Shown in pieces: positions 36,260-36,552 of a stretch of 64,000 nt of DNA. Below the pieces are notes generated by a model that was not told the DNA's origin, made no database searches, and saw nothing but the letters and a program-made list of their open reading frames with translations. Numbering within the stretch: the stretch's first letter is position 1; each line of letters opens with the position of its first letter. This DNA is from Pseudomonadales bacterium (GTDB taxonomy: Bacteria > Pseudomonadota > Gammaproteobacteria > Pseudomonadales > Azotimanducaceae). The position numbers and the translations under genes were made by a program. The DNA lies in assembly GCA_965267275.1 (NCBI GenBank), contig OZ253950.1, positions 121,333-185,332 of the forward strand, written 5' to 3'.

Positions 36260-36363
36260 TATGATGGCTCCTTAAATGAAGGGACCTCAGTGGTCAGATA
36301 GTCGTTCCATTCTTGAAGAGTTTCAAAAAGGTGGTTCGAGGTTTGTCCCTCTAGGTCCACCAT
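36259..36363 (-). other. Orphan in-frame 34-aa tail predicted to become the integrase C-terminus after excision
   Basis: MVDLEGQTSNHLFETLQEWNDYLTTEVPSFKEPS*; begins exactly at the attR core (ATGGTGG); its TAA overlaps the mobC ATG. Confidence 0.7.
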
Positions 36364-36552
36364 GTCAGCCGCCCTCGAGGGCGGCTTTACCGAGTTTTGC
36401 TCTTCGAGCAAAACGTCGTCAGTTCGTTCGAAGCTGTGCCTGCTTCTAGCTTAGCTTGGTTCGAGGTTGGTCCTTTTTGGCCGACCATGTCGTCCGCGCC
36501 TTGAGGCGCGGACTTATCGAGTTTTGCGCAAAGCGCAAAACTCGCCCAGTTC
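36333..36552. repeat. Two imperfect ~95-bp direct repeats (125-bp period), each an att-like arm plus two hairpins
   Basis: GGTTCGAGGTT..ACCATGTC at 36333 and 36458, each followed by a GC hairpin and a GTTTTGC..GCAAAAC hairpin, then CAGTTC. Confidence 0.85.
36357..36363 (+). repeat. attR core (CCACCAT)
   Basis: Identical to 15241-15247; GGTTCGAG upstream as in the tRNA T-loop. Confidence 0.75.

Follow-up and report, generated by a model that had tools for sequence, protein, structure and literature searches.

A tandem repeat at the right end of a tRNA-associated mobilizable island: a probable attR followed by an attR-like relic on host trailer hairpins

The window analysed here is a 64,000-nt stretch of the genome of a Pseudomonadales bacterium (Azotimanducaceae; GenBank assembly GCA_965267275.1, contig OZ253950.1, positions 121,333 to 185,332), and this study deals with a tandem repeat that occupies positions 36333-36552 of it, at the right end of an integrative mobilizable island. 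The island (15248..36356, 21,109 bp) is delimited by the GC profile, which falls from about 60% in host DNA to about 50% over 15-36 kb, by Pfam annotation and by empty sites in relatives. On its left side lies a tRNA(CAU) gene (15170..15246, + strand; ARAGORN), the sole tRNA gene in the window, placed directly after dnaG-rpoD (Pfam), and a large serine recombinase gene (15203..16759, - strand). On the right side, the repeat is placed between the start of mobC, which encodes a MobC/NikA-like protein (35822-36259, - strand; Pfam), and a host gene for an O-antigen-ligase-like (Wzy_C) membrane protein (36650..37831, + strand; Pfam, start approximate). The Wzy_C gene forms a conserved right flank, adjoining the unit locus in the relatives G001, G009, G012, G014 and G016. 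We propose, with a probability of about 80%, that 36333-36552 comprises the attR of the resident 21.1-kb island followed by an older attR-like relic, both lying on host trailer hairpins.

The two units of the repeat start 125 bp apart (repeat search, spacing 125), unit 1 at 36332-36456 and unit 2 at 36457-about 36560. Global alignment of the 125-nt units gave 90 identical columns out of 128 (~70%) and a score of 46, compared with -12.2 ± 5.0 (maximum 6) over 500 shuffles (z about 11.6). Tandem Repeats Finder did not report the pair, since a repeat of just two units with ~70% identity stays under its score threshold. Both units follow one plan, a half-site GGTTCGAG-N16-CCACCAT and then a host tRNA trailer made of GTC, a hairpin H1, TTAY and a second hairpin H2. 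The string GGTTCGAG-18 nt-AC-CATGTC, also written GGTTCGAG-18 nt-ACCATGTC, occurs at 36333-36366 and 36458-36491 with identical spacing and 28 of 34 bases in common. H1 is AGCCGCCC-TCGA-GGGCGGCT (36367-36386) in unit 1 and GTCCGCGCC-TTGA-GGCGCGGAC (36492-36513) in unit 2, while H2 is CGAGTTTTGCGC-AAA-GCGCAAAACTCG (36518-36544) in unit 2 and has GTTTTGCTC-TTC-GAGCAAAAC (36394-36414) as its core in unit 1. An initial annotation of this DNA had described the 125-bp period, the motif preceding each copy with its constant spacing, and the hairpins, and all of them are reproduced here.

From left to right on the + strand, the repeat begins with the P-type half-site of the resident island, that is the left arm of attR (36332..36356; TGGTTCGAGGTTTGTCCCTCTAGGT), and the right core CCACCAT (36357..36363). 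Copy 1 of the host trailer module follows (36364..36430), consisting of GTC, H1 (36367-36386), TTAC, H2 (36391-36418) and the conserved extension TCAGTTCGTT, and identified by its fold, by orthologous trailers and by a 53-bit covariance-model match. After a fast-evolving spacer (36431..36456; comparison with a close relative) comes a relic P-type half-site with a relic core (36457..36488; TGGTTCGAGGTTGGTCCTTTTTGGC plus CGACCAT), which is the second att-like site of the initial annotation, and finally copy 2 of the trailer (36489..36560), with GTC, H1 (36492-36513), TTAT, H2 (36518-36544) and the extension CCCAGTTCATT, which is the best covariance-model match of the genome (77 bits). As RNA, each trailer folds into two hairpins, with -30.3 and -37.8 kcal/mol and z = -5.2 and -7.4, respectively, and none of 200 shuffles was equally stable.

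Where exactly does the island end? Two empty sites provide the answer. In G001, which belongs to the same genus, rpoD-tRNA runs directly into TGTC-H1-H2, after which come a spacer, a P-like arm, another TGTC-H1-H2 and the ligase gene; the island is absent. In a close relative, represented by a contig in two algae-metagenome runs (117 kb in X5, 67 kb in X6), the tRNA's 3′ end is joined to position 36357, where host DNA resumes; the X5 contig aligns to 14900-15247 and 36357-36900, and its 7-nt overlap falls on both copies of the core, the left one at 15241..15247 (+ strand) and the right one at 36357-36363. This relative shows 9 differences in 343 nt of the flanking gene (2.6%). The empty sites therefore define the island as 15248-36356, right after the CCA end, and the tRNA gene is entirely host-derived, with the island inserted immediately after that end. 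In public runs with the same species label the locus was not present. The attL site reads ...GGTTCGAG-TCCTGGTGGGC-CCACCAT and then ACCAACATTGCC, and attR reads ...AAAAGGT-GGTTCGAG-GTTTGTCCCTCTAGGT-CCACCAT and then GTCAGCCGCCC. Because CCACCAT (7 bp; tRNA positions 71-76 plus one base) is the sole block common to attL and attR, the crossover is placed inside it. A tyrosine-integrase model was also considered, and it was dropped since the longest repeat common to attL and attR measures 7 bp.

The geometry of the arms agrees with that of a large serine integrase. The B-type arm of attL is formed by the 3′ part of the tRNA, GGTTCGAG (15222-15229)-N11-CCACCA, so that the distance from GGTTCGAG to the core is 11 nt in the tRNA, where the motif lies in the T-loop, versus 16 nt in the P arm (36333-36356). 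This offset of +5 bp, found for the left arms only, is the one described for large serine integrases, whose distal zinc-ribbon-domain motif sits 5 bp further out in attP than in attB half-sites (PMC3783163). On the other side of the core, the H1 loop (CTCGAGG) mirrors the T-loop motif at a symmetric distance and could be the B′ arm motif. The P arm itself travels with the element. A scan of public metagenomes found GGTTCGAGGTTNGTCC-N5-GG-N3-ACCA in 10 unrelated contigs with a different right-hand sequence in each, and in most of the ten the strand opposite the arm and its left flank encodes (M/L)VxLxG(Q/L)TSN; L148 and L153/L154 additionally carry the L(F/L)(D/E)TLxEWN of the window island. 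In the unrelated islands L148 and L150 and in the genome contig L180, the arm adjoins MobC and relaxase homologues, an arrangement as in the window, where the MobA/VirD2-type relaxase gene (34566-35867, - strand; Pfam) lies beside mobC. This neighbourhood and the coding of the tail indicate that the arm belongs to the element; it would at the same time encode an integrase tail that becomes joined in the circle and not elsewhere. When GGTTCGAGGTTNGTCC was searched family-wide with one mismatch allowed, matches were only modestly commoner than those of a reversed-pattern control, and a tRNA gene lay nearby in one of the 29 scanned relative loci (L117), with the match not at its 3′ end. Judged by these sequence comparisons, the junction would qualify as a serine-integrase attR, with four of five defining features present: the recombinase domains, the short core with an empty site, the +5-bp offset and the travelling arm. 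The circle junction would then read ...GGTTCGAGGTTTGTCCCTCTAGGT-CCACCAT-ACCAACATTGCC... and the empty site tRNA-CCACCAT-GTCAGCCGCCC.

The recombinase has 518 aa in its integrated form, with PDB matches to TP901-1 integrase and TnpX. Pfam identifies Resolvase (6.7e-21) and Zn_ribbon_recom (2.2e-9) domains and a weak Recombinase domain (E 0.043, below the cut-off), so that the domains of a large serine recombinase accompany the attR, the Recombinase domain with only a weak match. Its last 14 codons, MVGPPGLEPGTNGL followed by a stop, come from the antisense strand of the tRNA. The reading frame crosses attP (15203-15247, 36259-36363), and in the circle form the protein would gain a conserved 34-aa tail (GQTSNxLFxTLxEWN...). 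The coding region of this alternative tail (36259..36363, - strand) translates as MVDLEGQTSNHLFETLQEWNDYLTTEVPSFKEPS and a stop, and ends at the mobC start codon. The motif GQTSNxL(F/L)(E/D)TLxEWN also occurs in the independent islands L148 and L153/L154. The initial annotation had predicted that use of the second core would give a third in-frame tail, and translation reproduces it as MVGQKGPTSNQAKLEAGTASNELTTFCSKSKTR and a stop; the frame is kept simply through the homology of the copy-2 arm with the island arm, and this tail does not contain the family-conserved LFxTLxEWN motif. Twenty related recombinase loci, with 46-59% identity, were compared, and a convergent tRNA lies at the 3′ end of the integrase in 16 of the 18 that were scanned with ARAGORN. 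The tRNA genes at related loci (among L023-L040, L148, L150, L153 and L180) are those for Arg, Ser, Leu and Met, and tblastn matches that reach the integrase C-terminus extend 26-41 nt into the tRNA. Because the relatives sit at such different tRNA genes, what the family recognizes would appear to be generic to tRNAs, namely the T-loop motif and the CCACCA end. Members of this integrase family were found in 2 of 25 genomes of the genus. Our literature search, which was limited and does not establish absence from the literature, found no description of a serine recombinase family targeting tRNA 3′ ends.

This system shares with the large serine integrases of the Listeria A118 type, Bxb1, phiC31 and TP901-1 the resolvase and zinc-ribbon domains, a very short identity at the junctions (7 bp here), the exact restoration of the empty site and a half-site motif whose distance from the centre is 5 bp greater on the element side than on the host side (PMC3783163). 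It differs from them in its target, a tRNA 3′ end whose T-loop and acceptor end serve as the host arm, in an integrase frame that crosses attP so that the tail changes on integration, and in being a proteobacterial mobilizable island and not a phage. Moreover, the common 8-mer of the window lies ~4 bp further out than the motif positions of the A118 type. Serine-recombinase mobilizable elements of Firmicutes have been described that insert within protein genes and disrupt them (2017 review, PMC5704250).

The sequences on the right side of both cores belong to a family of host trailers. Orthologous trailers lie directly after the tRNA in G001, G008, G009, G012 and G014, each with a different and fully compensated H1 stem. 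A trailer consists of GTC, a GC-rich H1 with a TYGA loop, TTAY, H2, and then (A/G)TCG-TCAGTTCGTT. The outer stem of H2, CGAGTTTT/AAAACTCG, its invariant strands also being written CGAGUUUU/AAAACUCG, never varies among 52 distinct sequences. A covariance model built from ten trailer copies recovered 13 strong copies in the own genome and copies in 8 of 25 genomes of the genus, with 9-23 per genome in those that contain most. Copies are located immediately downstream of tRNA-Lys, Arg(tct), Gly(tcc), Leu(gag) and Leu(cag), in inverted orientation upstream of tRNA-Thr(ggt), Ala and Met, and inside operons, namely between rplA and rplJ, between rpsL and rpsG (after rpsL), between tRNA-Gly and tRNA-Thr-tuf and in the 16S-23S spacer. 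Across the 52 distinct sequences, 97.5% of cells are paired and 13 of 18 pairs have changed on both sides, including all 9 pairs of H1. The covariation score is 0.415, versus 0.094 for shuffles (none of 500 reached it) and at most 0.072 for slid controls, in an alignment that had been made to fit the model and in which some palindromic matches are read from the opposite strand. By the criterion of compensatory pairing, the trailer module is a conserved structured RNA/DNA element. The compensating hairpins of the initial annotation are thus real as far as their pairing is concerned, but they belong to a host trailer family and not to the island. Searches of Rfam 15 gave TD-2 as the best match in the region, with 26.6 bits against a threshold of 48.7.

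The hairpins had also invited a reading as an origin of transfer (oriT), which we rejected because they are host DNA present at empty sites. Apart from a possible B′ arm motif in the H1 loop, we infer that they are not part of the recombination machinery.

What, then, is the second unit? Copy 2 keeps the N16 spacing and all family-invariant positions of GGTTCGAGGTTNGTCC-N5-GG-N3-ACCA; relative to the island arm, 6 of 34 positions are changed, and two of these adjoin the core (CGACCAT versus CCACCAT). It is present at island-free sites, both in G001 and in the close relative. Comparison with the latter revealed 16 substitutions and 3 indels in the 66 nt of 36418-36483, which cover the spacer and the relic arm, versus no difference in the 61 nt of trailer 1 (36357-36417) and 9 in 343 nt of the adjacent gene. 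The spacer and the relic half-site therefore diverge ~10 times faster than their flanks, a pattern that suggests constraint on the trailers and none on the relic arm. In this relative H2 of copy 2 is deleted. Taken together, unit 2 is most probably an older attR-like relic, and it predates the present insertion. The initial annotation had included a scar of earlier tandem integration among its proposals, and this is the one that fits best, since copy 2 has a P-type half-site and already exists at island-free sites; its second att-like site is confirmed as a P-type half-site with N16 geometry, most probably an old and decaying relic on host sequence. As regards that site, the outcome is mostly deflationary.

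The number of units after this tRNA varies among relatives. There are none in G016, one in G008, G012 and G014, one plus a degenerate second in G009, two in G001, L084 and the X5 relative, and three plus a partial fourth in L112. The arms of L112 are identical to the island arm at 30 of 31 positions, and its trailers are wholly unlike those of the window. What follows copy 2 in G001 is orthologous to what follows the single unit of G014; on this comparison copy 2 probably has the original trailer of the locus, and the inserted segment would comprise trailer 1, spacer, relic arm and core. The most likely route would start with an earlier island of the same family residing at the site and a local tandem duplication spanning its attR. 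Precise excision of that island would then leave tRNA-core-trailer-spacer-P arm-core-trailer, as in G001, and unequal crossing-over would later alter the number of units, as in L112. Since the trailer cannot be duplicated by a site-specific exchange at the core, one step that is not site-specific is needed; trailer modules duplicate on their own, as at tRNA-Arg(tcg) in G001, so the region is prone to such events. The spacer at 36431-36456 is probably a decayed remnant of the right end of the earlier island. A microhomology at the duplication junction, suggested by a GGTCAG-to-arm distance of 41 nt in the island and in the spacers, was considered and dropped, the TCAGTTCGTT extension being host trailer consensus (for example after tRNA-Lys).

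Instead of being a relic, copy 2 might act as a live alternative attR. Excision between attL and copy 2 would carry unit 1 out, and excision at the inner attR elsewhere would deposit it, a serine-recombinase version of cis-mobilization and accretion in which ~125-bp units are picked up and deposited and could pass from one host to another. In that event, the circle junction would be ...GGTTCGAGGTTGGTCCTTTTTGGC-CGACCAT/CCACCAT-ACCAACATT... and the empty site would keep only unit 2. Each of the two sites has the attR layout (P arm, core, B′), and recombination of attL with the second of them is legal with a directionality factor (PMC3783163). A small ORF at 16756-17127 is a candidate for this factor. 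The conservation of every family-invariant P-arm position in copy 2, together with an intact CCACCAT in copy 2 of the close relative, is in line with such a role, as are the three near-identical units of L112 with an arm one base from the island arm. Furthermore, the copy-1 trailer of the window, with an 8-bp H1 starting with AG, is closer to the trailers of G008 and G014 than copy 2 is, as expected if it had been imported. Nevertheless, we consider this possibility unlikely. The six differences in copy 2 include the two by the core, its spacer and arm evolve as if unconstrained, and the tail that would result does not contain the conserved motif. The trailers in each array are host-specific and alike, which argues for duplication in place and not for import, and the integrase family is rare in the genus. 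We are equally doubtful of the broader idea that islands of this family create tandem attR-type arrays on duplicated host trailers and then exploit them, capturing and depositing ~125-bp units. If it were true, the arrays (two units here, three in L112) would be a fossil record of island visits and also working alternative excision sites that rewrite the integrase tail.

A minimal 125-bp integrative cassette that regenerates its target, another proposal of the initial annotation, is disfavoured as an independent element. Its flanks at empty sites are one attB-type and one attR-type site, which serine integrases do not recombine with each other (PMC3783163), and the trailer in each array is specific to its host and not common to different genomes. 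The same geometry bears on the comparison with CIMEs and tandem accretion at tRNA genes, as in ICESt1/ICESt3 (PMC5704250). The likeness lies in a decayed remnant with an attachment site standing in tandem with a functional element, and in the fact that the remnant site is usable in principle for a larger excision. CIMEs, in contrast, lie between an attL and an attR of the tyrosine-recombinase kind and show long direct repeats (PMC5704250), whereas the remnant in the window is ~125 bp, holds no element genes and is mostly duplicated host trailer. Functional attL and attR flanks were not found around the unit, which has attB-type and attR-type flanks at empty sites and two attR-type flanks in the window; without an attL-type flank, the recombinase alone cannot excise it. 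The initial annotation had also named what would speak against its reading, namely no homologues with conserved pairing together with the same two copies, as static host sequence, at empty sites. Half of this is borne out: homologues with conserved pairing follow the orthologous tRNA in five relatives, and the comparison of copy number at empty sites gave two units in both G001 and the X5 relative.

A further alternative is that each unit is a terminator, or another regulatory stop for the tRNA or for the mobC operon, that has been duplicated for strength. The stability of the hairpins is indeed high (z = -5 to -7), several tRNA genes have them immediately 3′, and H1 covaries strongly, implying selection on structure. 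However, the scan for terminators and promoters found nothing in the repeat (36333-36560), where no U-tract is present; H1 is followed by TTAC or TTAT, and in H2, whichever strand is read, the U-run precedes the stem loop on the 5′ side, contrary to the order in an intrinsic terminator. The module also sits between co-transcribed genes, as in rpsL-rpsG, rplA-rplJ, tRNA-Gly to tRNA-Thr-tuf and the 16S-23S spacer, and modules inside operons that are read through are therefore not efficient terminators. Together with the loss of the copy-2 H2 in the close relative, this makes the terminator function raised by the initial annotation distinctly improbable. H1/H2 probably have a role at the RNA level, in the processing or 3′-end protection of transcripts of stable RNAs and ribosomal proteins.

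The trailers recall REP/BIME sequences, since they too are small hairpins in pairs that are scattered, in either orientation, over transcribed intergenic spaces and at times lie at the ends of draft contigs. They differ from REP/BIMEs, which are abundant palindromes with a conserved sequence and a RAYT transposase as partner, in their low copy number (9-23 in the richest genomes, 13 strong copies in the own genome), in their concentration in operons of tRNA, rRNA and ribosomal proteins, and in an H1 whose sequence is free and in which only the pairing is kept, the outer stem of H2 being the sequence-conserved part.

That the repeat is a purely host-made tandem duplication of the tRNA 3′ end and its trailer, comparable to the Escherichia coli tyrT repeats and without relation to an island, the island arm being merely similar, is very unlikely: both units do exist at empty sites, and P-arm-free or tRNA-end-like arrays do occur (at tRNA-Arg(tcg) in G001, after tRNA-Arg(tct) in the own genome, and, with two units and an arm longer by 13 nt and not 5, after tRNA-Leu(taa) in G009), but the arms here are not copies of the tRNA end, since they have the island-specific GGTTCGAGGTTNGTCC, the +5 spacing and an opposite strand encoding MVxxxG(Q/P/L)TS, the same arm adjoins mobC and relaxase genes in islands of unrelated hosts, and the arms of L112 match the island arm despite wholly different trailers.

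Several points nonetheless weigh against our interpretation of the repeat as an attR followed by an attR-like relic. The crossover dinucleotide is placed only to within the 7-bp CCACCAT. Neither the attP circle nor the attB of this island was seen in the assembled contigs of the strain, from which assembly drops rare variants. The P′ arm has no convincing mirror of GGTTCGAG, so that the half-site assignment stands on the left arms. The function given above for H1/H2 is a proposal, our best guess. The origin of the first duplication is reconstructed, and its non-site-specific step has to be assumed; the spacers of the arrays resemble the tail-coding region of the island weakly, and indels are required to align them. 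Trailer modules duplicate without a P arm, as at tRNA-Arg(tcg) in G001 with a period of 86 bp. Finally, outside the window, the own genome contains an array of five units with a period of 127-130 bp after tRNA-Arg(tct) (L157; G000:C1:2028303-2028940). Each of its units is GTC-H1-TTAG-H2-spacer and then a look-alike of the tRNA-Arg 3′ end that is 5 nt longer than the real end, with 19 versus 14 nt between GxTCGxG and CCA. The arm of this array has no match to the window island family and none in 185,579 species genomes, and in Rfam 15 the array gave only sub-threshold hairpin matches. These unmatched arms and the duplications without a P arm mean that some arrays may have no connection to islands, and the five-unit array limits how general an explanation by island scars can be.

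Arrays and partial copies at the ends of tRNA genes have precedents of two kinds. Island finders such as Islander use fragments of tRNA genes as scars of past integration, and here too a former border is recognizable by an incomplete look-alike of the tRNA 3′ end that lies beyond an intact tRNA; the difference is that the look-alike is the own arm of the element, 5 nt longer than the tRNA end and repeated with host trailer up to three times (L112). Downstream of Escherichia coli tyrT there are 178-bp repeats, each starting with the tRNA 3′ end and without a recombinase half-site, and they are not known to be linked to an island. They resemble the window in forming a tandem array directly after a tRNA gene, with a tRNA-end-like start in each unit, and differ from it in holding true copies of the tRNA end.

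The analysis fixes to the base the borders and all four attachment-site arms of a defence island that carries type I restriction-modification and Hachiman. A serine integrase with a conserved and ubiquitous natural landing site would interest genome engineering, and knowing the relic repeats avoids mis-drawn island borders. Footprints in tandem with duplicated host DNA are usually discussed for tyrosine-recombinase islands, and our interpretation implies that a serine-recombinase island can leave scars of its own arm in such a setting. New as well is the hairpin-pair family itself, undescribed so far, with strong covariation and located in tRNA, rRNA and ribosomal-protein operons of one gammaproteobacterial lineage.

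Other loci show related arrangements. The array after tRNA-Leu(taa) (L166; G009:C65:112400-113000) has two units with a 126-bp period, the second preceded by GGTTCGTG-N27-CCA, which has only GGTTCG and CTGGGCACCA in common with the tRNA end and is 13 nt longer. In the tuf tRNA operon, within the spacer that separates tRNA-Gly from tRNA-Thr (L161, G001:C1:4996200-4996800; L169, G012:C1:11100-11500), a 20-nt copy of the tRNA-Thr 5′ end (GCTCACATAGCTCAGT(A/C)GGT) is duplicated along with inverted trailer modules; partial duplications of tRNA ends with these hairpins thus also occur on the 5′ side, with no island involved. In L148 (Ga0316189_10007931), an apparent displaced 3′ half of tRNA(CAU) (CATAATCCATTGGTCCC...TTCGAGTCCAGGCGGGCCCACCA) with an extra insert lies to the right of the arm and core, which points to insertions, nested or successive, at this same tRNA in a different host.

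In three genomes of the same genus, G014 (L019, 2347-2607), G012 (L018) and G009 (L020), a group I intron interrupts the anticodon loop of the orthologous tRNA(CAU) gene, and because of this ARAGORN finds no tRNA at L018-L020. The intron of L019 matches Rfam RF00028 with 73 bits; G000, G001, G008 and G016 have none. In the runs X1-X4, from the apparent source sample, a second organism that matches G001 and not G000 appears over 36487-36768 at about one tenth of the depth, so that the source is a mixed culture or a metagenome.

As for the cargo of the island, Pfam identifies, besides the large serine recombinase, the relaxase and the MobC/NikA-like protein, a TraG/VirD4-type coupling protein, an HTH protein, type I restriction-modification, YgjP and Hachiman. 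The defence genes occupy 21639-34515 and encode HsdM, HsdS, a NucS/PDDEXK-like protein between S and R, HsdR, a YgjP-type metallopeptidase and Hachiman, the last being composed of HamA (30237-31010) and a 1171-aa DEAD/helicase protein (31000-34515).

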